A stretch of 64,000 bases of DNA from Tricharina praecox (lineage: Eukaryota). Shown one piece after another: positions 1,730 through 64,000 of the stretch. Under the pieces are notes generated by a model. That model had not been told where the DNA came from, did no database searches, and saw only the letters and a program-made list of their open reading frames with translations. Made by a program: the position numbers and the translations under genes. Positions within the stretch are counted from its first letter, which is position 1; each line of letters opens with the position of its first letter. Location: contig NW_026250417.1 of assembly GCF_024521635.1 (NCBI RefSeq), positions 434,001-498,000 on the forward strand, in the 5' to 3' direction.

Positions 1730-4570
1730 TTACCTCGCAACCTTATCGTACGTACCCTTTTCCAGGTCCTCTATACCTTTCTCCCTCGTCAACACTGTCG
1801 GCTGCACAACCTTCGTACGGGGCATCGGCCGATCGAACCCGAACCTGACCCTCGAAATGCGAGTCATATAGTCGATGCTCGGCGTTTCCATGCGCAGCAC
1901 CGACTCGCGAAAGAGCGTCTGCGTCTTCCAGTCGTACGAGCACAGCACCGCGCGGAGCATTCCCCCCTCGCTGCCGGCGACCAGGGCCATCACTGGTGGG
2001 CGCACGGCGGTGATCATGTGCACGGTCTGTCACTCACTCGTTAGCTTTCTGATTCCACATTCGAAGGATGGGGGTGGAAAAGAGACAGGTATGTAGGTAC
2101 GTACCAGTGAGAGCGTGTCCACGATGGTAAACACCTTTTGCGCGCCGAAGGGGCTGTTCTTTGCCTTGTTGATGATCCTACGTAGTTTCGGGTCGTCGGT
2201 GGGGTCGCGCCCGACCCGCTCCCCGAGCTCGTTGGTCGAGTGCCGCGAGAACTTGCTTCCTGCGGCGCTCCATCGCATGCGGCCGAATGCGTGGCCGAAG
2301 ATGTGCGCCTCGATCGTCTGGATGTCCATGTACCCCTCGAAGCCGAATAGGCGGGCTTCGCACTCCCAGATCTTGCCGCCGTAGACGATCTTGACTAGGT
2401 ACGGCGCCGTGAAAAGGACGAAGATGTTTACGATCAACATGATGATGCAGGCAATGGCGGTGGACTGCAGTTGGAATGTATAGGGGTCCCGGTACCCGGT
2501 TTGGCTCATGGAGGCGCGGAGGTACGGCGCAGTGCTGCTGATTATGACGGCGAAGATCACCAAAGTAACGGGACAGAGGCGGAAGAGGAGGCGGGCGAAG
2601 AAGCGCTTCCACGACCGGACGCGCCGGGTGTACACGACCCGCTTGAAACCGTCCCATTGGATTGCGGCGGCGTGGCAGCCATCGAGGATTGCCGTGTCGT
2701 TGTCGCAGATGCCCGCGATCTGACAGCGCGGTTGGATATCCCAGGGACAAGCGCCCCAGGCATCGTCGCTGGTGAGCCAGTGTCCGCCTTGAAGCCGCGG
2801 GAGAAGGCAGATGAGACGCTCGAAGAGCCGGTCGGTGTCGTTCACCAGAGACAGGCGGGCCGTGGCTTGGAACTCGGTGTCGGTGCTATCGATCTTTGGG
2901 CGGCGCCGGAGGAGTCCCATGAGGGCGTACGCCAGGTCGCCCTGGAAGTAAAGCTCCTTCACTCGTCGGCGATGAAGGCAGCGGAAGGCGATCACCGTCA
3001 GCTCCAGACGGCTGAGAATCTGAGTGCCGAGGTAGTGATCGAGCAGCTGGCGAGCCTCGGCGGCATCGCTCCATGCCCGCCGCGCAAAGTCCCGCTTTGG
3101 AATGATCTCCACATCCAGTGACTTCGACTCCGGCTTCTCACTGGACACATCGGCAAAGTTCTTCTTGTACACGACGATATCCTTGTGCTGGGGACTCAGC
3201 AGTACTTCCGGGAAAGTCCACATCCTCGCCGAGAACTGGACCAGAAGGTCCGTTGACCTGGTGTCCTCCCAGTGTTCGGGGTCGTGGCTCGGCTTGAGAG
3301 CGATGGCGAGGGTCTCCGCCCCGCGGATGATATCGCTCATCCGGTACATATCCTGAGCCAGCACTTTCCTTGAGGGCATGCACATCGCGGAGCACCAGAA
3401 CGCCTTCACGCCCGCCTGTCTTGCCGCAACCTCGCCGATCTCCTGGAGCGCCGCCATATCCGCCTCGTTCCGCTCGTCAAACTGCCTTGTCGAGAATGCG
3501 AGGAAAACGTATGGCGTAGCAGTTGCCCCATTCCGTACTGGATCCTTCGAGCCGACTGCGATCTGGATTCCTGTGCCCTGCTCGTGGAGATAGCACAGAT
3601 ACGACGGCCTCAGCAGCCGCTCCTGCGTCGGGTTCGGAGTGATCGAGTCCGCACTCAGCACCACATCCTCGAGTGTCCGCTCTTCCGAAAAGTCCTGGCG
3701 GTTCTCGCGGACGTTCTTGAATACCTTCGGGTAGCCCCAATATTGGTACGGGAAGGGATCGTACAAGCCTCTGTTCCCTGTCACCGCGAGGCGTGTCGGC
3801 CACGGGAGTACAAAGAACAGTCCCACCACCGATGGTAGCCACTTCAATGCGACCAGCCACACCGCGTCCCCACTGCCTTCTATTGCCGAACCGGAATCTT
3901 CCTCAATATCTTTCAAGGGCCAGTAGGCGAGCCGTACTATCAGGGGCCCGACATTACGCACGTGCGTCCGTCTCCACGAGTTCGCACCCGGCCGGTCGAG
4001 TGTGTAGATATCGTCGGTAGCGGCAACCACGAGCTTCCGCAGCTCGGCCGAGTCCGGCGTCATATACCGATCCATGTCGTCGAGTCCGGTGTACGTGCGG
4101 CCCATCGAGTCCCGGTGGAGCTTCAGCGACGGCAGGTGGCTCTGCACCGTCGGTGGCCGATAGAAGTGGGGCGAGGCTAGGAAACGGTACCGGACGCCGG
4201 TCAGGAACCAGTTTACGGGCCCATTCTGGGGGGTACGCTTGTGTGATGTCTTCTCGAGTGTTGGGTGGAGGTACTTTTTGTTTTCTCACTATCAGTACGG
4301 TTTCCTTTCCGTCTCCCCGAAGAAGGGACGTACACTGTGTGATAACCGCCGGTCAACGGGGACATCCTCAGAAGGTGAGGAGGAAGTGGAGGAAGAGCTG
4401 TCGCCAACCATCCTCCGGCGCATACCCGGCTCCATCACCTCCGGGGCAGTGGAGTACCGAGTGGGGATTTCTGCTGGCTGCTCGGAGGTATAGTATTGGG
4501 GTATCTCATAGCCCTCATCCGTGGCACCGTTCACAGCCAGTTCAAAAGTGGAGACCTGGTCGGGATCCAT
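1730..4570 (-). CDS. Membrane protein with HET-like domain, 3 exons
   Basis: ORFs 4292-4570, 2030-4147 and 1730-2023 join through a 60-nt intron (~4273-4332, GTACGT...CTGAT...AAG) and an intron at ~2030-2104 (GTACGT...GCTAAC...CAG). Motifs FWCSAMCM, DMYRMSDIIRGA and RMWTFPEVLLS resemble HET-domain motifs. Hydrophobic segments flank the domain. Confidence 0.8.
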
Positions 4571-37022: not shown

Positions 37023-38312
37023 CCTCAGAATGTGGGGGGTGGGTAAGGCGGGAAGCGTAGATCTCCGGTCTCCGTCAACGCAATTGAGAGCGAAAGAAAG
37101 CTTGCTTATGGCGGCCGTCGCTATCGTTATATTCCGCTTCGCACCTCAATTCGGTCGGCGTAGAATGAAGCGATGCGAACGAATGGAGGATGAGTACGGG
37201 GGGAAGTCCTATGAGTGGTGGGGGTTCTGCGCGGATGCTGGCACTGATTGACCGAAGCTCACGAGCTGCGGGTGAAGAAAAAATTGACGGCCTCTCGCGG
37301 ATCACCAATCCCTGCGTCCGCTATGCTTCGTTTACCTACCTCCCCCGATCCGATCCCGAGCAGCTCGGTGGCAGCGGCAGTCTCGGACGGGCATACGGGT
37401 TTGGAGATTTTGATGTTTTAGCGGCGATGTAACGTCTTGTTCCCGCCGTCTTCGCCGCGGAGCACCATGCAGAACAGTTCCCACGATGAAAACGAGCTAT
37501 GAACCGTGGAATTTGGTCACTTGTGGGACAATTGCTACACATTCCCACCTGTAAGGCGCACACACCAAATACACAGCTCACACTGGAGAAATAGAGTGCA
37601 GATTTCCGAATCTTCGCAAACTAAACTTTTGCTTCTTCACCAAAATATGTATCCCGTCTATCAGCATCCACAGTCCATCGCCCCAATCAAATGGGACTCA
37701 ACGGACTGCGGACTTCCTATCGGGGAAATAGTATTCGTCTGGAAAACGAGAAAGACGATCCGAGGATCGAACAATCTGGCATCTAAACACCGTGGAGAAA
37801 TCGTGATGTTTGACGTGGCATTGTCTTCGGACTTTTTGATGAAGAAGAAAAAAAAAGAAGAGCAGAAACGGGTGGAAGAGAGCGGGTTTTATTCACGCGA
37901 CGCACAGTGCCAAGCATTAGGTCACCAGCTAGCAGAAATTTTAGCCGACTGGGCATGAATAATCACTCGGGATTCTACCTCGTCCATCGTGATCGGTTTG
38001 GCTGATCTAAAGCAAAGCGAGAATACTCTACATAGCCAAGCATGTCAGCAGCAGACGTTTCTTCTGAGCAAAGGCAAGCTGACCTTATTCTCTTACGATT
38101 TCCATGTACTCGGGTGTAAGGGTAAGTGCTGCCTCACCAGGTTTTCCCCCATACAACTTAATCACAACCACTCACTCATTTCATTGTATCTGGCTTAGTG
38201 TGCTCATAATATAGACTAGTGCTTATAATTCGTAATGGTGAGGCCCACTTATTGGCAGCTCCTGGTACTATCCTTGATTGAATTTGGCCGCTGGTGAGAT
38301 ACTATGAGCCCC

Positions 38313-50600: not shown

Positions 50601-53600
50601 GAGAGAGAGAGACATGAGAGAGATCGAAGCCGGAGCATTCTTCCACCCACTTAAGCGCGCCCCATTCCAGCGCGGTTTCGTACTCTACACATATTTACGG
50701 TGCAGTGCACACGCACACGCATCCATCGACACATCGTGCTCGCTCGCTCGCTTGAATTCTCGTGTGCTGCTGTGCGATAGGTACCGGTATGTGCAATATG
50801 TGCGATAAGCATTGAAGCAGCATCCGGATTCCAATCCCAATCCCAATCCCAATTGATGGAATCAGTGGGATCCTGCGGGATCCAGTGGGCTGCGGGACGC
50901 AGGATTCGCATCCCATATATCCCATCCATACATTCAGTCAGCCAGGCTGGATTTGAACTTTGCGCACTTCGTCCCGTTCTTCAACCGAAATACTCTACAC
51001 ACTTCCTACTTACAAGTCTTACATACCTTTAGTAGCGCTCCGACTAGATGAGCCACAGAAACCATAGTAACTCTATGCACAAATCGTGAGGTGTTTTCTT
51101 TCCCTTCTTTCGCTGCAGCGCGAGAGTAGAATTCCCCCGCAACTCACTGCTGCTGCTAGTACTCTAGATAGAGTACTAGTTACCGTAGTACCGCCCCCCC
51201 TCCCCCACTTATCCGCGGGGAGAAGTCCAAGTTAAAGTCAAAGCCCAAGAGTCGCGAAACAGTCCAGAGCTCTCAGCACGGCATCTTCCGTGGCGAGGAT
51301 GGCGCCTCCCGTATGTGGGCTAGGTACTCTAGTCTAGTCGATTGGTGCGGTGGATGGGCGCTGCACTGTGCAAACGTACGTACTTCTACATAAGAAGTTG
51401 GCAGAACGAGCACGAATACGTTACATACATACGGTAGAGTACGGGGGAAAGGTCCGTGGACCGTGGACCGGGACCGCGCCCATGGACCATGGTGCTGGCG
51501 TTGGGCGACCGTGATTGATGGTTTATGCAGCATGTAACCCGCAAGATCGTGGCTATCGGGCGACCATAATTCTGGTGGCATGAGGTTTGCACGCACGCCG
51601 GAGCGACGATTGGAGTTGTTTCCCAGCGGCGATTTGCGTGCTCAAGTGCGTTTACACGCCGTGCTGTGCTGTGCCGCGTCGCGTCGCGGCGTCGGTTATC
51701 TACCAGTAGGTAGCCTCCAGTCCAACCACAGCCCCAGCCACAGCCACAGCCATAGTCGTCGTCACTTCCCCGGCCACCACCGACCACGGACAGAGGCCCG
51801 CCGTAATTAGTGGCGCGAGCGGCTACCCCGGGGTGTCAGAAGAGATTTGATCGCCGGACCAAGCCCAAGTCCAAGCCCCGGAGGCTACAGGGCCGCACAA
51901 AGTGGTGGCGCGGCTTCCGACGTCACCGGCTCACTGTCCAACGGATCGCTGAACCACTGGACCACTGATTCGCATTTCGTGATTCGCAATTCACCTCACG
52001 ACTCCGTAGGTACCTTCACGATTGCGACGTCTGTGTTGGGGGTGGACACTGGATGGACGCAGTCAGCTGGAGTAGGTAGGCATTCGCCGCCAGCCGGTCG
52101 GTGAGTCTCGCTCGCTCGCTCGCATGCTCGGCGCACGTCGGTACAAGAAGTATGCATCCATCAGACATCTGCATCGGAAGCGAAAGAGCGGGAGCAGAAA
52201 GCAAGCAAGCAAGCAAGCAGAAAAAAAAACAAAGTGTGGCAAAACGATCAGCTTCACGGCACACAGAGCAGGCCAGACCAGGAAATAGGATGAACGCTCC
52301 GGACGCACCCCCACTTCCAACTCCAACTCCTCACGGGTCACAGCAACTCGCGCAAGCCACTATCGTTAGTAGGTACCGACTAGCAGCCAGCAGCCAGCCA
52401 GACGGCTACTTACCCCGCACTTCGAAGTTCTAGCCGCAACTCCAACTGCTTGGTGTAACTGCTTGGTGTTGGTGTATCTGCATATCTCCACGGGTACTGG
52501 GTACTGGGTACTGGGTACAGGTTCCTATGCATGTATGTATGCAACGGCAGTTTGTCCGACCCCGACACCACCGTCGACACCGCCGCCGCCCCCGCCGCCG
52601 CCGCCCGCACGGCGCACGCACACACGCACGCCAAGTATGTACATGCATGTACGGTAGCCAAGGCCCAGACCCCGATCCCCTGGGAAGCCACCTGCACGAA
52701 CACGAGAGACTTTTTTCCTGCTACTACGCGTGGCGAGTTGCAGCTGTCGGTTGGTCTGTCTGGCTGTCTGTCTGGCTGTCTGTCTGGCTGTCTGTCTGGC
52801 TGTCTGTCTCGCCCGTGGGTACACACCCCACGTGCGTGTGTCGGGTGCCAGGTATTTGAAACTTGACGGGGGCGTGTGGAAGGGACGAACGTCACACGGA
52901 TCGATCGCGGTGGAGTGAATGAGGGAGGGGTGGAGTGACGACGAGTGAGGGCATGGATTGATTGATTGATTAATTGATTATTCATACAGCATGGAACCCT
53001 AAGGTTATGGCCGGTAGAGGTATCTACAATACAACATTTTGATAAAGAAATTCCGCAACCAAATCCATACAGAAGTGACAGCAAATCCCCTCGTCCTCGC
53101 AATATTTTAAAAGTGAGCCTCCGAAGAGGCTCGGATTGTCGGTTTTTGCGCTGTAGCGGCGCTTCGTAGCCCTCCTCTTCTCCAAAAGGTACCTCCACTC
53201 GGTACTACCCTCAACATAACCAGTCTAGTGCACACGGCATGGTGCTCGAAGGGAATAGTCGTCTTGGGGTTTGCGTAGCTGTCAAGGCCGAAGCCCAATG
53301 AATAGCAGCGAAGATATTTGGATCGAAGGCGGGGTTGGCAAAATGCCAGTCGTCGTGGTCAACGTGGTCCTGGGCCAAGCCCTGAGCTCTCCTCCTGGAG
53401 TTCACTCTCCTCCCGCCGTCGCCATATCGCCTGCTGAACAGGCTCTCCTAGAGTGATGAAATCGATGATGATGTGCGGGGAAGCGATGGTGAGACTTCTT
53501 CTGAGGTTCGGACGTAGCACGCGTGGTGGTGCAGTTCTCCGGCCAGGGACCGAGGCTCGATTGATCTCTATCGCTTCATGCTCATCGTCGTCGAATTCGT

Positions 53601-54549
53601 CGGTCGGGGCACTCAATCCGCGGTCGGAAAGAGTCTGGCATGGATGGATGGATGGGTGGGTGTCGGCATCATGTCAGGGCGGAAAAGTTTGAGCGCGAGG
53701 TTTGGGTTCCCACTGCCATCTCGGGCGGGAGTGGGAGCGGGAGCAGAAGGGAGCAAGATGCTGCTGCGTGCTGCGTGCTTGGGGAGTAACCACCGTATGA
53801 ATAGGAAATCGCATCCGTCGTGAGGCTTGGCCGCCTTCGGTCGCCCGTTCTTGTTCCTGCCAGAGTTTCCCGAGCCCTCCCCTCGATCGGTACCGGTATT
53901 CTCACCCCGCGGCGCAGCTGGTGCAGGATTCGAGCCGAAGATAAGCATATACGGTACATTATATACGGTACATACCAAGTATCCATGTTTGTATGTACCC
54001 TTCCCCGCCGAGCTTTCCAGTACCGACCCACCGGTACCACATCGGCGGCTCGTATAACGTCCCACAGCCTGGTACCGGTCTGCGATGGGCAAAAAGACCC
54101 CTTCCCTTCCATCGCTCGCTGCGCATGCAACTTTAACGCGGTTAACGTTTTCGCTTCCTTGGTTGGTTGGTTGGTTGGTAAGCACGCACCGATCGATCTT
54201 CGCCGGGCGATACGGTATCGACGGCACCGGAAGCATCGACATCCGGCCTCCGAAGGAACCAACACCAGTCGTTTTTTTTCCTCCCTCCCTGCCCCTCACC
54301 AAACTATAGATATACTTAGGAATGTGCCTACATACCGGTACCTACATATGTGCGTACTGGCACGCCGACGGCAGCTAGAGCAAGGCCATGGAGACGGAGA
54401 TCGTACATATACCGGTAGATATGTAGAGCAAGCAGTCCCGTCAAAACTCTAACTCGAACTCTATCTCAACCTCTAGCCTGCAAGTCACCTGTTCTCACCC
54501 ACCACCATCACCACCACAATATCCGGTCCATATCTACTACAATCATGGA

Positions 54550-56431
54550 TCAAGCCGCGCACACGAACCCGCCACTCCCCCACTGCCTCGGCTCTCCAAC
54601 AGCCTGCAATGTTCCGTCCGCGCACCGCATAACGCCCTGGGCGGAGGCTATTCCCGGGCGCGCGGGGACGAACGTTACGTTGTGTCCGCGCCGCGCCATG
54701 TCCGCCACCACGGCGGAATCGTAGCCGACCTCGAAGCTGGTCAGATTGGGCCAGAGCTGGTCGTGCAGACGGGGAGACGACAGCGCCGCGCCTGTCGGCG
54801 TCAGCTGGGGTGCGTGAGGGAGGGAAGGGAAGAGAAGGGGTGGGATGGGATGGGGAACGGACGAGCATCTAGGCCTTTCTCGAGGACGCGCCACACATTT
54901 TGCACCGTCGCCGTGATTATGCGACTACCGCCGGCGGCACCGATAACAAAGTACACCTGCCCGTCGGGGGTCTCGACGATCACGGTGGATACAGAGGATA
55001 GTGGGCGTTTGAACGGTCGGATGTAGTTGTTGGGTGTGGGCAGGAACCCGAAGAAGTTGGAGCTGCCCGGAGTGCTGAAGTCGTCCATTTGGTTGTTCAT
55101 TATGATCCCGTCCTGGACGTGTTAACCGTGAAGGCAGCTGGAAGGAGGAAGAAGAGGTGGTTATACGGAGGGTGTCATCACTTGGCTGCCGAAGAAGGTG
55201 TTGATCGTACTGGTGAGAGAAACGGCCATTCCCTCTGCGTCCAGCGTCGCGATATGGGACGTTCCTCCCTTCCTGCACGGATCAGCACTCGCCGTGCAAT
55301 TCCAACACGTCTGAATACCTACGGTGTCGGACTGGCCATTCCCTCCGGATTGTAATACGAAATATTCGGTAGCACTGCGTCATCTCGAATTTGTGTCCTA
55401 ACCCCCGCTGCGACCTCCTCACTCACCATCTGCCTCTGGAACTTCTCCAGGCCGTCCACGAAATCTGGATCCCCCAGCTGTGTCCGCTGGCCATACGCAA
55501 ACTTGATTCCCTCAACGAGTCGATGTGTTTCCAGCCCTCTGTCCCCCGTTCCGTTCCAGCCCTCGAAAATCTTCAGCGCACTCAGCACGACCGCGCCACT
55601 CGACGGCGCACTGCCCGCAGACAACTTATATCCCCTATAATGCGCAGTATTGACCCTCCGATGCTTAACGCGATACCCCTCCAAATCCCGCACCGTCAGT
55701 ATCCCGCCGCGCCTCCGCACCTCACGCACCGTACGTCTCGCCATAGCTCCCTTATAGAACACATCCGCGCCGCCCTTAGCGATAGCCCTGAGCGTTCTCG
55801 CATATCTTTTGCGATACATCACCTCGCCCACCCCAACCCTCTTCCCCCCGGGCGCCCAATCCCTCCGCCACGCCCCATCCCGCAGCAAGAACGGGTATGC
55901 AGTCGTATTCCCCGCCGCATCCAGATCCATATTGACCGTGAACCCACCCTCCGCATACTTAATCGCGGGCCGAAACAGCTGCTCCCACTTCAGCCTTCCC
56001 CAGCGCCGCGATAACTCCTCGAGCCCTCTGAGCTCGCCGGGCACCGCTGCCGCCAGCCCTCCGACAAGCGAGCTGCTGTTGGGAGCCAGGAACATATCCC
56101 CGGTAGCCCCCGCCGGCGCCGCCTCCCGGAAGTCCACGAAGTGCGTCGCTCCGGAGGGGAGACGGACTAGCGCGAAGCTGCCCCCGCCGATCCCGGAGTG
56201 GTGGTGCGCGATCGTGCCGACGCATAGGAGCGTGGCTACCGCGGCGTCTACCGCGTTGCCGCCCGCGCTGTAGATCGAGGCGCTCGCGTTGGAGCATTCG
56301 GCTACTTCGGAGGCCGTAGCACCGCCGCCGTGGCCTGTGAGGGGGCCTGTGAAAGGGTGTGCGACTGCGAGCGGGAATGGGAATGGGAATGCGAATGCGA
56401 ATAGCAGGAGGTTGAGGACTGGGAAACGCAT
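54550..56431 (-). CDS. Gamma-glutamyltranspeptidase, 4 exons
   Basis: Signal peptide, GGNAVDAAVATLLCVG, SGIGGGSF, DFREAAP, nucleophile region GTSHIA, NNQMDDFS, KRPLSS, GAAGGSRI, PRLHDQL. Confidence 0.95.
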
Positions 56432-56969
56432 CTTGCAGAGGTACAGTACACGATGGTAGGTTGGTAGGTGGGCCCGTGGTTAGGCCGCGGGCGGTGATCA
56501 CAGCGGCTTTATATCCTGCACCCAGAGCTGAGAGTTGGCGATTGCATCATCAAGTATGTGACTACCAAGCTGATATCCACCCCGCAGGTAGTCGACCTGA
56601 CACGGGCGGTACACGCCTGCTAAATTGCCAATGGTGATCACGATCAACACTGTAAGTATGTAACTGGTATGATAACATGTACCCTTGCATCCGGGCTACG
56701 TGCATATGTTGTGTTCCCCGAGAGGAATGGATACTCTATGTATGTACGTTGCATCGGTAGTGCAGGAGATGCATCATGCTAGGTACTCCAGATGGGGAGT
56801 TGAAACTTGAAACTTGAGTGAGGGGCGGTGTTAAGGTAGGGGAGAGAGGTGAGAGAGAGAGACAGAGCGTGCGGACACAGAGTGCGCGCGCAGCGAGCGA
56901 GCGCTGGGCAGGATGAATTCCCTCGATGCTTCGGCCTCACAGAGCACCCAAGCCATCAATGGAAACCTC

Positions 56970-57117
56970 GTCTTTCAAGTTTTGAGACAATCAAAAATTA
57001 TGACGCCGAAAGATCCAAAGATCCTTCGCCGAGACTCCGACCCTCGCTGTGCAATGAAGGTGTTGTCTCTGGACTTCGGTGATTTGTGAGCCACCAAAGT
57101 CGCATCAAGGTAAGTAT
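56970..57117 (-). ncRNA. U1: U1 snRNA, copy A (canonical 5' end)
   Basis: 5' ATACTTACCT; helix H TGATGC/GCGTCA; SL1 GACTTTGGTG-10nt-CACCGAAGTC; SL2 loop ATTGCACAGC; SL3 CGAAGGATC-TTTG-GATCTTTCG; Sm site AATTTTTG (56992-56999); small 3' hairpin. The 3' end is approximate. Confidence 0.93.
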
Positions 57118-57151
57118 GAAGAAGAAAAAAGGAGAGAGGTGGGATGGGGGG

Positions 57152-57159
57152 TTTTTATA
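57152..57159 (-). promoter_or_regulatory. TATA box of U1 copy A
   Basis: TATAAAAA 35-42 nt upstream of the U1 5' end, followed by a pyrimidine tract; conserved in copy B. Confidence 0.75.
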
Positions 57160-57193
57160 GCGGTTTTTGGAGGGCGGCTTGGCACACACGACG

Positions 57194-57289
57194 TCACTCG
57201 GATAGAAAGTCGGCGGTGCTGGATGCATTCAAGCTTGACACATGAGGCCTCACTCGGATCTAAAGGTCGGCGGAGCTGGATGCATTCAA
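57194..57289. repeat. Two ~40-bp direct repeats in the divergent U1/secreted-gene promoter
   Basis: TCACTCGGAT...TCGGCGGwGCTGGATGCATTCAA at 57194-57232 and 57250-57289; a single copy at 59144-59183. Confidence 0.85.
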
Positions 57290-57419
57290 TCTTGGCAGCA
57301 CTGTGGTTCTGCCGCCTGCTCTTCTTACTTCTTCTTCGTTCCTCTTCCTTCTCCCTTCTCCTCCCACTTCGGTACTTCCTTAAACTCATCAACCCCTTCA
57401 GAATATCATCATCAGCATC

Positions 57420-58046
57420 ATGCATATCCATATCATCCCCACAGTCCTGTCAGCGATTATCGCGGTCATCTTGGCCGCTCCGCCCGGCACCTCCTCCTCC
57501 TCCCCCTCTTCAACCGTCACCCACAGACCCAACGAGCCCCCGAAGAACACGATCGCCTTCCCGCACCTCGTCATCCCGGGCATCGACTCCTCCACGGCCG
57601 CCGCACTGCAACGCACCGTTGTCCGTCCCTCATCCCGCACCAACGACACGTACGACGTCTACGTCTCGACCGGGCCCGGTACGATCCCCGGCAAAGAGGC
57701 TTGGAAGGGCGGGAAGCTTTGGTTGGGCGAAGTGATCTGCGAGACGTCGCTAGCCTCCCCCACGTTCTCGGAGATCGACGGGCTTAGGGCGAAGCTATCC
57801 AAGCGGCCGCCCATATGCTGGCAGAAGAACGGTGGCGGCTCGAAGTGCACCCGGCTCGTGTCCCACTACGGCGGCGTCGTGTCGTTGTGCGGCACCCCTA
57901 GCAAGCAGGTCGAGTGCGCAGCTGTATCGTGGGCAACGATATTGATTAGGCTTATTTGTGGCAATAGTGAGTGGGGCAAGGCCGGTGGAATGTATAAGTT
58001 TGCCCTCGAAGACGAAGAGTACAATTTGAGGGCGGTGCTTCATTAA
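57420..58046 (+). CDS. Small secreted 6-Cys protein, paralog A
   Basis: Signal peptide; CETSLASPTFSEID...CWQKNGGGSKCTRL...SLCG...ECAA...C...AGGMYKF. Confidence 0.88.
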   Translation: MHIHIIPTVLSAIIAVILAAPPGTSSSSPSSTVTHRPNEPPKNTIAFPHLVIPGIDSSTAAALQRTVVRPSSRTNDTYDVYVSTGPGTIPGKEAWKGGKLWLGEVICETSLASPTFSEIDGLRAKLSKRPPICWQKNGGGSKCTRLVSHYGGVVSLCGTPSKQVECAAVSWATILIRLICGNSEWGKAGGMYKFALEDEEYNLRAVLH

Positions 58047-58397
58047 TTTGCTCTTGGCCGCTTGGGAAAACTGGCAATGGAATTTGGATGCGTTATGGAA
58101 ATGAAAATCAGGTTCGAGTGAGACATACTTCTTTTGCGTGTGATATCTCGTGTCGTTACCGAGCCGATCTCTTCAGAAGTTCTTAGGTCACCCCCCCCTC
58201 CCACTGGGGGTTTGTTGTTGTTGAGATCAAGAGCCCTCGCACTGCATCTCGTTCGCCTTGCTGTGGGGGGGGGAGGGGGGGTGAGAGAGAGACAGAGCGT
58301 GCGGATACAGAGTGCGCGCGCAGCGGGAGAGCACTGGGAAGGATGCTTCCCTCGACACTTCGGTCTCATAGACCACCCAAGTCATCAATGGAAACCT

Positions 58398-58537
58398 CGT
58401 GGTTCGTAGTAATCAAAAATTGAGACGCCGAAAGATCCGAAGATCCGTCGCCGAGACTCCCTCGCCGTGCAATGGAGGTATTGTCCCGGGAACTTTGGTG
58501 ATGGTTGAGCCACCAAAGTTACATCATGGTACGTAAT
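58398..58537 (-). ncRNA. U1: U1 snRNA variant, copy B (5' end ATTACGTACCA)
   Basis: SL1 AACTTTGGTG-10nt-CACCAAAGTT; SL2 CCGGGAC/GTCTCGG with ATTGCAC loop; SL3 with C(TTCG)G loop; Sm site AATTTTTG (58414-58421); TATA at 58580-58587. Helix H is weaker and SL4 is unclear. Confidence 0.85.
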
Positions 58538-58588
58538 TGAAGAAGAAAGAAAAGATGGAGAGCGGTGGGGGGAGGGGGGTTTTTATAG

Positions 58589-59110
58589 TGTGGGACAGTG
58601 GAAACGGCGGGCATGGCAGATGCACGAGCGGCGAAATTTCGCCGACCTGGCTAGACCAGATTCAGAGGGCTTGAAAGGTTCAGAGGGCTTGAAAGGTTCA
58701 GAGTGCTCTTGTTTACTTTGCCGGCGGGTCTGTCTGTCTGTTTTATTGTTCTCATCATTGCTTTCATCGTCCTTTTTTTTTTTTGTTTCATCAGTAATTC
58801 CATGCGGCCTATCTAGATCATGGCAATATCACCCCGTTCACCCCCCGTTTCCACGCCACTGTCCAACCCAGCTTTCACTGAGCGGCCCAATTTGGCTGCT
58901 TTCATTGTCCTTGTTAGCAGTTATTGTTCTCATCGTGTGCTTTTCGTTGTTATTTGTCCTGAGCTCGACTCGTGAGGTTCTACGATCTCTTGAATAACAC
59001 AGGAAGGTTTTCTCTACTTTAAGATTCCTCTCTTGTGAACTACATACAGTCGGCCCCCTATCTATTATCAAATTTGCCAAAAGGTCTTTCCAGTCCTAGT
59101 GCTTCAATAG
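58589..59110. mobile_element. ~520-bp insertion in the copy B promoter, unclassified
   Basis: Absent from the aligned copy A. ATAG occurs at both junctions. Contains an 18-bp tandem repeat (58661-58703) and a T run. Confidence 0.5.
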
Positions 59111-59194
59111 CTGTTTTTGGATAGCGGCTTGGTACATGAGGCCTCACTCGGTTAGAGAGGTTGGCGGTGTTGGATGCATTCAATTTCGGCTGCA

Positions 59195-59852
59195 GACAAG
59201 GAGGAGGAGAGGGGAGTCGGGCCACCTGATGAAAACTGGGTTGGAGGAAACGGGGTGTACGGGTAGACATTGCGATGATCTAGACATGTTGCATGCAATC
59301 AATGATTAAACAAAAAAAAAAGCAGGCAAGGAGGGACAAGGACCGATTCCAAGTCCGGGACCTCTTCGCTGACGATTGGTGCAGCCAGGCCATCCTGGAC
59401 TTCCTTTCCTTCACTACTGTGGGTAGGCGGAACTCAAAGGCGGATGAGGAAGATGCAGCAAGTGAGGTGTCTGAGTGGGAGCTAAGGGAACGGGAAGAGA
59501 GGGGGAGCTGCAGTGACTGCAGGAAGACTCTGAGGGGGCGCGGTAAGGCAGATTAGAGGCCCGTGGTGGGGTAGTGACGAACCGAGGGAGCGGATGGTGT
59601 CTTTTTGTGTTTGTTTTGATTTCTTTGGTGCGCTCATACATCGTCGGGACAGGCCAGGGAGGAGGGCAGGAAAAGTCACATCGGGCAAATCAGTGAAAGT
59701 CGAGTCAGACAGTTTCTTGGAACAGGGGGAGAGGGGGAAAGGGAGGGAGAAAGGGAGGGAGTGTCGATCTGGGTAGACATTGCTATCATCTAGACAGGTC
59801 GCATGCAATTAATGGTTGAACATAAAAATAAAAATAAAACGAAACATAAAAA
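59195..59852 (+). mobile_element. 5'-truncated non-LTR retrotransposon (LINE-like) 3' ends, two in tandem
   Basis: RDLFADDWCSQAILDFLSFTTVGRR resembles fungal LINE ORF2 C-termini (from memory). Two ~52-bp similar termini (59261-59312, 59771-59822), each followed by an A-rich tail. Degenerate 15-bp flanking duplication at 59180-59194 and 59853-59867. Confidence 0.7.
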
Positions 59853-59964
59853 TCAATTTTGGCCGTATGCTCTCCTTCCTCCTTCTTCCTTCCTCCTTCT
59901 TCCTCCTCCCTTCACTCTCCATCAATCCCCCCTCATTAATCCCCCTCAGAACATCTTGATCATC

Positions 59965-60627
59965 ATGCGTATCCATCTTCTCATCCCCACACTCATCTCA
60001 GCGATAGTTAGGTTCACCATGGCCGCTCCTTCCAGCTCCTCCTCCTCTTCCGCGGTCGTCATCATTAGGCCCTCCGAGCTCCCAGAGAGCACGATCGAGT
60101 TCCCAGCCTTTGACATCCCGGGCCTCGACTACGCCATCCTCGGCATCGACTACGACGGCACGGCCGGTGCCTCGCAGCCTTACGCCCCGCCCACCTTCGA
60201 GGTTCATCCGTCCACCACCGTCAAGGGTGCTTACGACGTCTACGTCTCGACCGGCAACGGAAAAAACCCGGGCGAGAAGGAAGTGGAGTGGATAAATGGG
60301 AAGGTATGGGCGGGCCAAGTCGTCTGCGAGACTTCGAATGCCTCGCCCACGTTCACGGAGATCGACGATCTGAGATACAAGCTGCTCAAGCGCCCTCCCT
60401 GGTGCGTGCAGAGGAACGGCGGCGGATCGCAGTGCACGAGGCTCGAGTCCTCCAAAGGCGGCGACGTCTCGCTGTGCGGATCCCCCAGCAGGGCTGTCGA
60501 GTGCGCGGCTATCTCGTGGGGTTTGATGTGGATCAAGCTCATGTGTCCCAATAATGAGTTCAATAGGGCCGGTGGAATGTACAAGTTTCTCATCAAGAAA
60601 CACAAGTTGAGGGTGGCGCTTCATTGA
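59965..60627 (+). CDS. Small secreted 6-Cys protein, paralog B
   Basis: MRIHLLIPTLISAIVRFTMA signal peptide. Same Cys spacing and motifs as 57420-58046. The 3' flank is also homologous. Confidence 0.88.
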   Translation: MRIHLLIPTLISAIVRFTMAAPSSSSSSSAVVIIRPSELPESTIEFPAFDIPGLDYAILGIDYDGTAGASQPYAPPTFEVHPSTTVKGAYDVYVSTGNGKNPGEKEVEWINGKVWAGQVVCETSNASPTFTEIDDLRYKLLKRPPWCVQRNGGGSQCTRLESSKGGDVSLCGSPSRAVECAAISWGLMWIKLMCPNNEFNRAGGMYKFLIKKHKLRVALH

Positions 60628-61437
60628 TGGTTGATGGTTGGATTGTACACTGTTGGGCGCTTGGGACGGATGTAACTATGCGCCATGAAAATTGAGAACG
60701 GGTTTGGGAGGAACATATTCTTCTGTGCGTGTGATATCTCGTGATGTGACCGAGCCATGTATGTGTTGGGACCCGAAGTGACTGGTGAACCGGGTTCTTC
60801 CTCACCAGTTTCCTGGACAGGCCCGTTTCGTGCCGTCTCCACCCTGAGCGTAGTTCCATTACATTGGTTTGGAAAAACGTCGACTAATGGATCTGAACGA
60901 GCTGGTCTGGGAGGGCTGCGAGTTAGATGTTGGCGGTAGACATCTTTACTGACAGTTGACACCGGAGGACTCTGATCATGCATCCTCACTCCCCCGGCTT
61001 CATTGTTACCATTGGATGGCGATAGATCTTACAATGGCCCAACTTATTATTCACGTGCCTACCGGCACCTTTGATCTTGGGTCATAGGCTGGCGGTAAGG
61101 GTGGATGGCAGACAGTGCTGATTCAGGAGAACGGCATCCTCACGCAAAAGCAGTCGGCATTACGCATTTGATCCTTTACGAACACTTCATCAGCCTGGCA
61201 TGCACCATCGTCTAATAATCAAAACATATTCTATATTCCAATTTTCAAGAGCGAGCAGGAGCTGAGAGGGTATCTTTATATAAAAACAATCCATCCATTC
61301 TTCCATCCATCCATCCAGCCCTTCGTCAATAAAAAAAACCAGAAACGCCCGCAGCCTCAGAAAAGGAAAAGAAAAAAAAGGAAACACCCATGATCCATCT
61401 GGTATTACGATTACTGTGGTACTCGTCACATCATGTC

Positions 61438-63488
<2,051 letters not shown>

Positions 63489-64000
63489 TTCGGGGGTGAT
63501 GTAATGTCGTAGTCGTTGAAGGGTTGATAGTTCTCGCGCAGAGTGACGGAGGTAAGGAAGGAAGGAAAACTCAAACCGTGAAGTCGAGCGGGTAGTAGTG
63601 CCTTTTGAATGAACGGTGGGAGGTCTTGATGTAGATACCGTAGGGTTTGAGAGCGGGAAGGTGGTGGCGGTTGAGGCTTTCTCTTCGACGACGGCTATCC
63701 AACGGACTGGATGGTGGATCGGTTGAGTGTTGACCGACGGAATCCCGTAGTCCAGCTGGAGTAAGATTGGTTCTGCGGAAAGAGTGCAGCGGGAGAAGTG
63801 GAGGTAGGTAATGGCAGGAATGAGTGAGAGGGGGAGCTTTTCTTTTCTTTCGTCGTTCTTTGCCGGACCGCTGGCGCCGATCCAAACAACACCACTCACA
63901 CCCACACATCGCACTACCCACCTCCATACATCGGATCTATGGACTTGGGAGATTTTTATTTCCGCAGTCATTCGAGGCCCGAGTTCATGCAGGCCCCTAC

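Follow-up and report, generated by a model that had tools for sequence, protein, structure and literature searches.

The 5' arm of the U1 small nuclear RNA (snRNA) is among the most conserved of all eukaryotic RNA sequences, even where most donor sites mismatch it. The question raised by a 64,000-nucleotide stretch of the Tricharina praecox genome (contig NW_026250417.1, positions 434,001 to 498,000; hereafter the window, with all positions counted from its first letter) is whether a U1-like gene carrying a rewritten arm may nonetheless be a gene in good order, and what such a gene might do. Two tandem U1-like genes, designated here copies A and B, were found 1.4 kb apart on the minus strand of the window. 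An initial annotation, made from the letters alone, had presented the second of these as a variant U1 with a changed splice-site-recognition sequence. On the sequence comparisons reported here, copy B is a true U1 paralogue that behaves as a gene with its fold under selection, and it may encode a variant U1 small nuclear ribonucleoprotein (snRNP) with a shifted donor preference, a reading that we hold tentatively and at somewhat less than an even chance. The two genes and the flank of copy B are as follows.

56920..57117, minus strand: copy A, a canonical U1 gene (Rfam U1, 62.8 bits; sequence, alignment and fold)

58341..58538, minus strand: copy B, a variant U1-like RNA-coding unit (Rfam match, clade-profile match and alignments)

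58262..58340, minus strand: 3' flank of copy B, homologous to that of copy A (7 differences in 66 aligned positions)

A search with the Rfam U1 model (RF00003), which had been suggested as a check on the annotation, matched both copies over the full span of the model, copy A with 62.8 bits and copy B with 31.1 bits (E 1.6e-5, 58385-58536), yet both lie under the gathering score of 69.5 bits, and a scan of the whole window at the gathering threshold gave zero U1 matches. Since seven U1 copies from relatives (39.2-56.0 bits) as well as copy A also fall under 69.5 bits, scoring below the threshold is a clade-wide property and says little about copy B alone. The sole match in the window at the gathering threshold was an snR34-like H/ACA small nucleolar RNA (37643-37841, minus strand; 40.0 bits, the cut-off being 39). 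A clade profile searched with nhmmer matched copy B at 58535-58350 with a score of 156.9, and nhmmer with the --max option found no third U1 copy in the window. A U1-specific pattern matched the window exactly twice, at copies A and B, and had 0 matches in 100 shuffles. Homology between the two copies extends through an upstream unit, the TATA box, the RNA and approximately 70 nt of 3' flank, and copy B is, as judged from these alignments, a tandem duplicate of the host U1 snRNA gene made at the DNA level. Its ends are uncertain: the 5' end lies anywhere from 58536 to 58538, and the 3' end is either that of a terminal stem-loop, at 58349, or that of a conserved ATCC box, at 58341.

The arms of the two copies were compared in the orientation of the minus strand.

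57117-57108, minus strand: 5' arm of copy A, AUACUUACCU, canonical

58527..58538, minus strand: 5' arm of copy B, (A)AUUACGUACCA (sequence and alignments)

Copy A begins with ATACTTACCT (57117-57108), the letters of copy B at 58536-58527 are TTACGTACCA, and from 58536 onwards its sequence is UUACGUACCA. The substitutions of U5 to G and U10 to A that had been called in copy B are real when its minus strand is read against copy A, leaving copy B with ACGUACCA and not the canonical U1 arm ACUUACCU, the complement of GUAAGU-type donors. Position 1 is also altered, through either an A to U change or a 2-nt insertion past the conserved C|A start; a MAFFT pairwise alignment favours the insertion, in which case initiation at the same CA would give AAUUACGUACCA. 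Positions 2-4 and 6-9 are unchanged, and nucleotides 16-17 read UA in copy B in place of the CG of copy A. The changes at positions 1, 5, 16 and 17, four of the five within nucleotides 1-17, jointly create a small inverted repeat, from which a 6-bp 5' hairpin (UUACGU/AUGUAA, 58519-58536, minus strand) is possible at -2.3 kcal/mol, copy A having none (0.0). This hairpin, a post hoc observation, may be what a single complex mutation left behind, or it could make the arm self-masking. In the computed ensemble arm positions 2-6 are approximately 50-70% unpaired, and in the minimum-energy fold the arm is free and the ordinary cloverleaf is formed.

In the register of U1 with a donor, position 5 faces intron +4 and position 10 faces exon -2, positions 3, 4 and 6-9 facing U+6, G+5, A+3, U+2, G+1 and G-1, respectively. 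A possible course of events is one in which a duplicate of the U1 gene was kept foldable by selection and had its 5' single-stranded arm rewritten. Transcription from the retained TATA box and C|A start would then yield a minor U1-type snRNP whose ACGUACCA arm would pair perfectly with UG|GUACGU, and by G.U wobble with GUAUGU, so that donors with C or U at +4, which the canonical ACUUACCU arm pairs less well, would be favoured. Transcription, snRNP assembly and an effect on donor choice are all inferred here from the DNA.

The body of copy B, set beside the corresponding elements of copy A, comprises the following features, stem-loops being abbreviated as SL.

58491..58520, minus strand: SL1 of copy B, a perfect 10-bp stem with loop GCUCAACCAU (fold and alignment)

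58451..58489, minus strand: SL2 of copy B, with the AUUGCAC loop at 58473-58467 (fold and alignment)

58429..58450, minus strand: SL3 of copy B, with a C(UUCG)G loop (fold and alignment)

58413..58421, minus strand: Sm site of copy B, AAUUUUUGA, invariant in 12/12 aligned sequences

58349..58391, minus strand: 3' terminal stem-loop of copy B, with 13/13 consensus pairs kept (RNAalifold and pair counts)

56999-56991, minus strand: Sm site of copy A

56962-56920, minus strand: terminal stem-loop of copy A

The minimum-energy fold of copy B gave the four-way junction of helix H and SL1-3 unaided, with 26 of the 31 consensus body pairs standard, three lost through one deletion and two mismatched. 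As the initial annotation had described, SL1 is a perfect 10-bp stem with compensatory changes relative to copy A (G-C to A-U, and U.G to U-A); the first of these includes G17 to A, which lies in a column where the other 11 sequences do not vary and for which the 3' strand has a compensating change. In the SL1 loop, where U1-70K would bind, the GCUC that is constant in the clade and the A of loop position 9 are retained, and column 34 has a C, where 10/11 of the others have an A; loop positions 6-8 are variable in the clade. The AUUGCAC loop with its closing C-G pair (the U1A site), the Sm site, the TATA box and the C(UUCG)G loop of SL3 are likewise all present, as had been proposed.

SL4 had been regarded as unclear, a matter now settled by the terminal stem-loop at 58391-58349. 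The fold of a 12-sequence alignment contained, besides helix H and SL1-3, an extra stem-loop located 30-45 nt past the Sm site, which is followed in the U1 genes of the clade (the window copies and the metagenomic loci L001-L009) by a short conserved (C)ATCC box. In the family structure 92.7% of cells were paired, compared with 39-52.5% in slid controls, and 17 pairs had changes on both sides (3-6 in slid controls), seven of them in the terminal stem-loop. This element is either the equivalent of SL4 in a U1 of approximately 200 nt or a 3'-processing hairpin. Owing to it the copy B unit extends 3' beyond 58398, to approximately 58341; of the bounds originally given, 58398..58587, the 3' limit does not stand. 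The covarying terminal stem-loop, together with the upstream element CGAGTGA described below, is, on the alignments, a newly recognized clade-specific U1 architecture.

Whether the body of copy B is maintained or decaying was assessed from the placement of its differences. Of 187 aligned columns, 30 distinguish copy A from copy B, and most of these differences fall on the branch of copy B. A RIP-like (repeat-induced point mutation) origin was considered and rejected, given 18 transitions against 12 transversions. Substitutions affected 7 of 85 paired columns compared with 23 of 102 unpaired columns (P 0.009), and only 2 of 40 gap-free pairs were broken, where 7.3-9.3 would be expected from random placement (P 0.0006-0.008); a calibrated test gave 2 broken against 8.4 expected (P 0.0028). 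In the six comparisons that did not involve a 'b' copy (five canonical pairs, and copy B with L006a), 0-3 pairs were broken against 2.0-13 expected, with P <= 0.0034 in five of the six and P 0.09 for L001 with L008, which are separated by seven substitutions (0 broken, 2.0 expected). The first and second copies of relatives' tandem pairs served as positive controls for substitutions placed regardless of pairing: L004a and L004b had 7 pairs broken against 10.3 expected (P 0.12), and L006a and L006b had 11 against 11.6 (P 0.48). The substitutions of copy B were thus not blind to base pairing, as those of neutral decay would be, and the earlier description of a body maintained rather than decayed is upheld, copy B resembling the orthologue comparisons and not the 'b' copies of relatives. 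A fold kept by selection would mean that copy B is, or until recently was, made into an RNA that matters.

The words 'until recently' describe a rival reading that we consider quite possible, though we would not call it probable, namely that copy B is a recently disabled relic, a U1 pseudogene of the class I type, which served as an ordinary second copy for most of its history and in which decay has only begun. Silencing or crippling by a repeat insertion in the promoter, by the clustered mutation of the 5' arm, or by both, is part of this reading, and long service as an ordinary U1 would account for the preserved pairs. Set against it, neutral decay at a density of five changes in 17 nt should have broken many pairs; the changes in the arm avoid every position that pairs with G+1, U+2, A+3, G+5 and U+6; and the TATA box, C|A start, Sm site, U1A loop and terminal stem-loop are intact. 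The promoter bears most directly upon it.

57152..57300, minus strand: promoter of copy A, with TATAAAAA at 57159-57152 and two tandem upstream units

58580..58587, minus strand: TATA box of copy B, TATAAAAA, approximately 50 nt upstream of the arm (clade range -41 to -56)

58589..59106, no strand assigned: 518-bp insertion of a repeat family (blastn, alignment, repeats and contig depth)

59107..59194, minus strand: displaced promoter unit of copy B, 82% identical to that of copy A, with CGAGTGAG at 59150-59143

The two upstream units of copy A are of approximately 57 nt each and contain CGAGTGAC (57200-57193) and CGAGTGAG (57256-57249). In copy A, L001, L004a, L004b, L006a, L006b and L008 the TATA box is preceded, approximately 27-48 nt upstream, by a motif, CGAGTGA(C/G/T); CGAGTGA is exact in five of these seven and one letter off in L001 (CCAGTGAC) and L004a (CGAGCGAC), and it is a candidate snRNA promoter element of the clade. 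An insertion just upstream of the TATA box of copy B had been pointed out in the initial annotation, and proved weightier than was supposed, as it is 518 bp in length and separates the TATA box from the upstream element. It is flanked by a CTAT target duplication (58585-58588 and 59107-59110), the homology between copies A and B reaching GCTAT on its far side and resuming with CTAT|AAAAACC on its near side. The insertion point is the TATA box itself, which was rebuilt by the CTAT duplication. A 'degenerate' upstream element that had been read near this TATA box was withdrawn, as the stretch concerned lies inside the insertion.

The inserted sequence probably belongs to a family of non-autonomous transposons. 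Its depth in the soil sequencing runs described below, measured to 58900, was 267-401, compared with 5-8 in its single-copy neighbours, and further members of the family lie upstream at 59230-59321 and 59771-59831. Inverted arms occupy 58775-58844 and 59252-59321 (81%), and the member at 59771-59831 is a direct copy (85%). Elsewhere, copies of the repeat diverge from the inserted one by approximately 5-10% (3/64 to 9/94 letters); as the divergence between the flanks of copies A and B is 10.6%, the insertion is probably not very recent, a weak inference which nonetheless tells against a relic disabled only lately by this event. Within the insertion, an 18-nt unit, AGATTCAGAGGGCTTGAA, is tandemly repeated at 58658-58693, and a perfect palindrome of 16 bp, CGG-N10-CCG, is present at 58629-58644, 92-107 nt upstream of the start of copy B and near the usual place of the upstream element; chance alone would be expected to supply approximately one of this kind per 64 kb.

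A new upstream context of this kind would alter regulation, and so is of interest to a second alternative, that copy B is an expressed U1-like RNA with a role other than a new donor specificity. It might be a regulated minor isoform or a competitor for U1 proteins, or its arm might be partly masked by its own 5' hairpin. From the sequence we consider such a role unlikely. The maintained fold would suit it, as would the hairpin of nucleotides 1-18, which is impossible in copy A, and there is a human precedent in vU1.8, which, according to PMC3561869, acts on 3'-end processing and not on splice-site choice. However, the minimum-energy fold leaves the arm free in an ordinary cloverleaf, the hairpin was noticed after the fact, and the sequence points to no specific alternative target.

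The sequencing runs that contain copy B are soil metagenomes only, which brings in a third alternative, that of an assembly artefact or mixed-organism chimera in which copy B came from another strain or species in a soil sample and was misjoined to copy A. It could also draw on the homopolymer tract at 58234-58264, on either side of which the Logan contigs of run X1 stop and which those of neither run bridge, so that the physical linkage of copy B to copy A rests on the window's own assembly. On the other hand, the stretch 58265-58624 is reproduced with 0 differences, at a depth of 5.9, in an independent Logan contig from run X1, possibly the sample of origin, and contigs of run X2 cover 58302-58459, where the arm is not clearly included, also with 0 differences; nothing from X3, the one RNA run of the same study, aligned to the window. 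Contig depths are alike over copy A, the spacer and copy B (5.1-8.3); copy A is the nearest sequence to copy B (98% bootstrap); and the homology of the two enters species-specific flanks and the displaced promoter unit. We therefore regard a chimera as very improbable. Depth rises abruptly at 57062-57138, the 5' end of the canonical U1, to 99 in X1 and 21.6 in X2 compared with 5-10 beside it; the first 40 or so nucleotides of U1 are apparently common to many fungi in the sample.

Relatives of the two copies were sought in metagenomes with a pattern in which arm positions 5 and 6 could vary, whereas helix H, the Sm site, the U1A loop and arm positions 2-4 and 7-9 were obligatory; U1 copies that deviate further would escape such a scan. 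A total of 11 loci with 15 U1 matches, representing 10 distinct sequences, were retrieved. The first 17 nt were canonical and identical in all 15 matches, including the tandem second copies of L004 and of L006/L007/L010, and of the 17 U1 copies (two from the window and 15 from relatives) only copy B departs from these 17 nt, at five positions. The host group was indicated by the diphthine-ammonia ligase encoded in the window, for which the best named match was that of Sphaerosporella brunnea (70%) and other relatives were at 81-83%, within the Pezizales. An nhmmer search over all 2-kb flanks of the relatives' loci found one extra, partial copy, at the edge of L004. When the window from 53000 to 64000 was compared with the 11 loci by tblastx, only the U1 genes matched and there was no protein-level synteny. 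In the window itself a gamma-glutamyltranspeptidase gene lies at 55319-56431.

The phylogeny was inferred by maximum likelihood, and copies A and B were recovered as sisters with 98% bootstrap support, indicating that their duplication, or its homogenization, is lineage-specific. Tandem U1 arrays also occur in relatives: L004 has copies at 1-72, 422 and 1322, and L006/L007/L010 have two copies 650 bp apart. The second copies L004b and L006b cluster together and evolve fast, on branches of 0.21-0.28 compared with 0.07-0.09. These two Pezizales copies are like copy B in being fast tandem paralogues beside a conservative copy, yet they differ from it in keeping all 17 canonical 5' nucleotides and in that their terminal stem-loop is lost, with 7-8 of its 13 pairs broken.

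The donors of the window were surveyed by a strict scan that joined open reading frames, a weak heuristic, with the following counts.

GTGAGT: 9 intron-like of 57 in the window

GTACGT: 5 intron-like of 32 in the window

GTATGT: 5 intron-like of 58 in the window

GTAAGT: 4 intron-like of 24 in the window

By this weak heuristic GUACGU donors appear to be in use in the window. The two GTACGT donors cited earlier for the gene at 1730-4570 were both recovered among intron-like contexts, at 4333 and 2104 (minus strand), and the latter, CTG|GTACGTAC, does contain the TG|GTACGTAC site that had been singled out (2106-2097, minus strand). Ten-mers complementary to each arm numbered 4 against 1.9 and 4 against 1.6 in shuffles, which is no excess in either case.

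Returning to the variant U1 with shifted donor preference, there is much that weighs against it, and a good part of this is what a recently disabled relic would be expected to display. The strongest argument against normal expression is the split promoter, in which the upstream element of copy B has been shifted by approximately 520 bp and now lies approximately 555 nt upstream of the TATA box. The branch of copy B is five times longer than that of copy A (0.19 compared with 0.039). In a leave-one-out comparison copy B violated 8 of 69 otherwise-invariant body columns and the other copies 0-4; these changes were concentrated in nucleotides 1-17 (5/17, compared with 3/52 elsewhere, P 0.018), a concentration that speaks for the variant U1, and of the invariant-column changes made after the two copies split, eight are in copy B and one in copy A (P 0.039). 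The density of changes in nucleotides 1-17 is not significantly in excess of the 16% of copy B overall (P 0.13). The upper stem of SL2 has been cut from 6 to 4 bp by a 5-nt deletion; helix H is weakened, as had been noted initially, by U-A to U.U and C-G to U.G changes; one or two extra 5' nucleotides are present; and the Rfam score of copy B is the lowest of the nine copies scored. No G5-bearing orthologue of copy B was found among the 15 matches in relatives, all of them canonical, which lends no support to a conservation of G5. On the relic reading the inverted repeat formed by positions 1, 5, 16 and 17 might have arisen as a single complex mutation, and variant snRNA copies elsewhere are mostly poorly functional, according to PMC8457000, in which human variant U1s are described as assembling poorly into snRNPs.

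Rates of change are no help to the variant U1 either, as the RNA divergence between the two copies (15.7%) is not below that of the 3' flank (10.6%; P 0.42), the comparison of unpaired columns with the flank giving P 0.063. The rates therefore offer no sign of purifying selection, and the case for selection rests on the pattern of change. The unbridged homopolymer tract also counts on this side, as do the donors themselves, U being found at -2 in only one of the five GTACGT candidates of the heuristic census. GUACGU donors are used across fungi having canonical U1 only, and a second U1 is therefore not required for them. Of the second-specificity proposal, the maintained body and the pairing logic of G5 and A10 are supported, and conservation of G5 is unsupported. 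A fuller version, in which the organism would have two U1 snRNPs, one with the universal ACUUACCU arm and one from a maintained ACGUACCA paralogue serving UG|GUACGU and GUAUGU donors, with transcription of the latter rewired by the repeat insertion, is on present sequence comparisons doubtful.

Animals and amoebozoans are known to have variant U1 genes in which the arm is altered, as the comparisons below describe. The human variant U1 (vU1) genes, formerly the class I U1 pseudogenes of 1q12-21, resemble copy B in being DNA-mediated duplicates with homologous flanks and promoters, in carrying base changes and small deletions that often lie within the stretch complementary to the 5' splice site, and in that their status as pseudogenes or minor snRNAs is disputed. 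Changes in this region are reported for 52% of vU1, many of which are expressed (PMC3561869). Copy B differs from them in that its promoter has been split by a repeat insertion, and in that expression has been demonstrated for vU1 whereas that of copy B is putative.

Amongst the amoebozoans, the U1 candidate of Mastigamoeba balamuthi has the arm ACGUAC and that of Entamoeba ACAAAC, as given in bioRxiv 10.1101/2022.06.08.495308. The Mastigamoeba arm contains the same U5 to G change as copy B, with Watson-Crick pairing to +4C, but it is a clear U1 candidate matched to the donor consensus of its genome, whereas copy B has a canonical U1 1.4 kb away and the donors around it look mixed; a sole U1 of the Mastigamoeba or Entamoeba type is thus not the situation here. 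In the same source Physarum polycephalum is reported to have both standard and ACAUAC variants of U1, and the standard arm is reported for 69/69 Saccharomycotina species that yielded U1 candidates (bioRxiv 10.1101/2022.06.08.495308). Physarum is like the host of copy B in combining standard and arm-modified U1 genes in one genome, and unlike copy B in having A at position 5 and belonging to a different kingdom. No published fungal variant U1 was found in the literature searched, a scope that lay outside supplements and older catalogues (Davila Lopez). Engineered suppressor U1 snRNAs reportedly have arm changes that redirect pairing to mutant donors; the mechanism proposed for copy B is the same, the suppressors being laboratory constructs and copy B a natural gene. 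Copy B would be a new addition, from a fungus, to the variant U1 genes already known as a class, which is interesting and unproven.

If copy B is maintained with its changed arm, it would offer a natural handle on a second snRNP serving donors that vary at +4 and -2, and on the real specificity of minor U1 isoforms. Were the two-snRNP version true, fungi would have in it their first natural U1 system of dual specificity, and nature would have supplied an experiment on the reasons for which the U1 arm is frozen everywhere else. If copy B has instead been freshly disabled, it would represent the ordinary birth and death of snRNA genes, and a caution that an intact fold is no proof of present-day function. 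Whichever applies, the U1 genes of this clade fall under the Rfam threshold and have an architecture of their own, comprising the terminal stem-loop and the CGAGTGA element.

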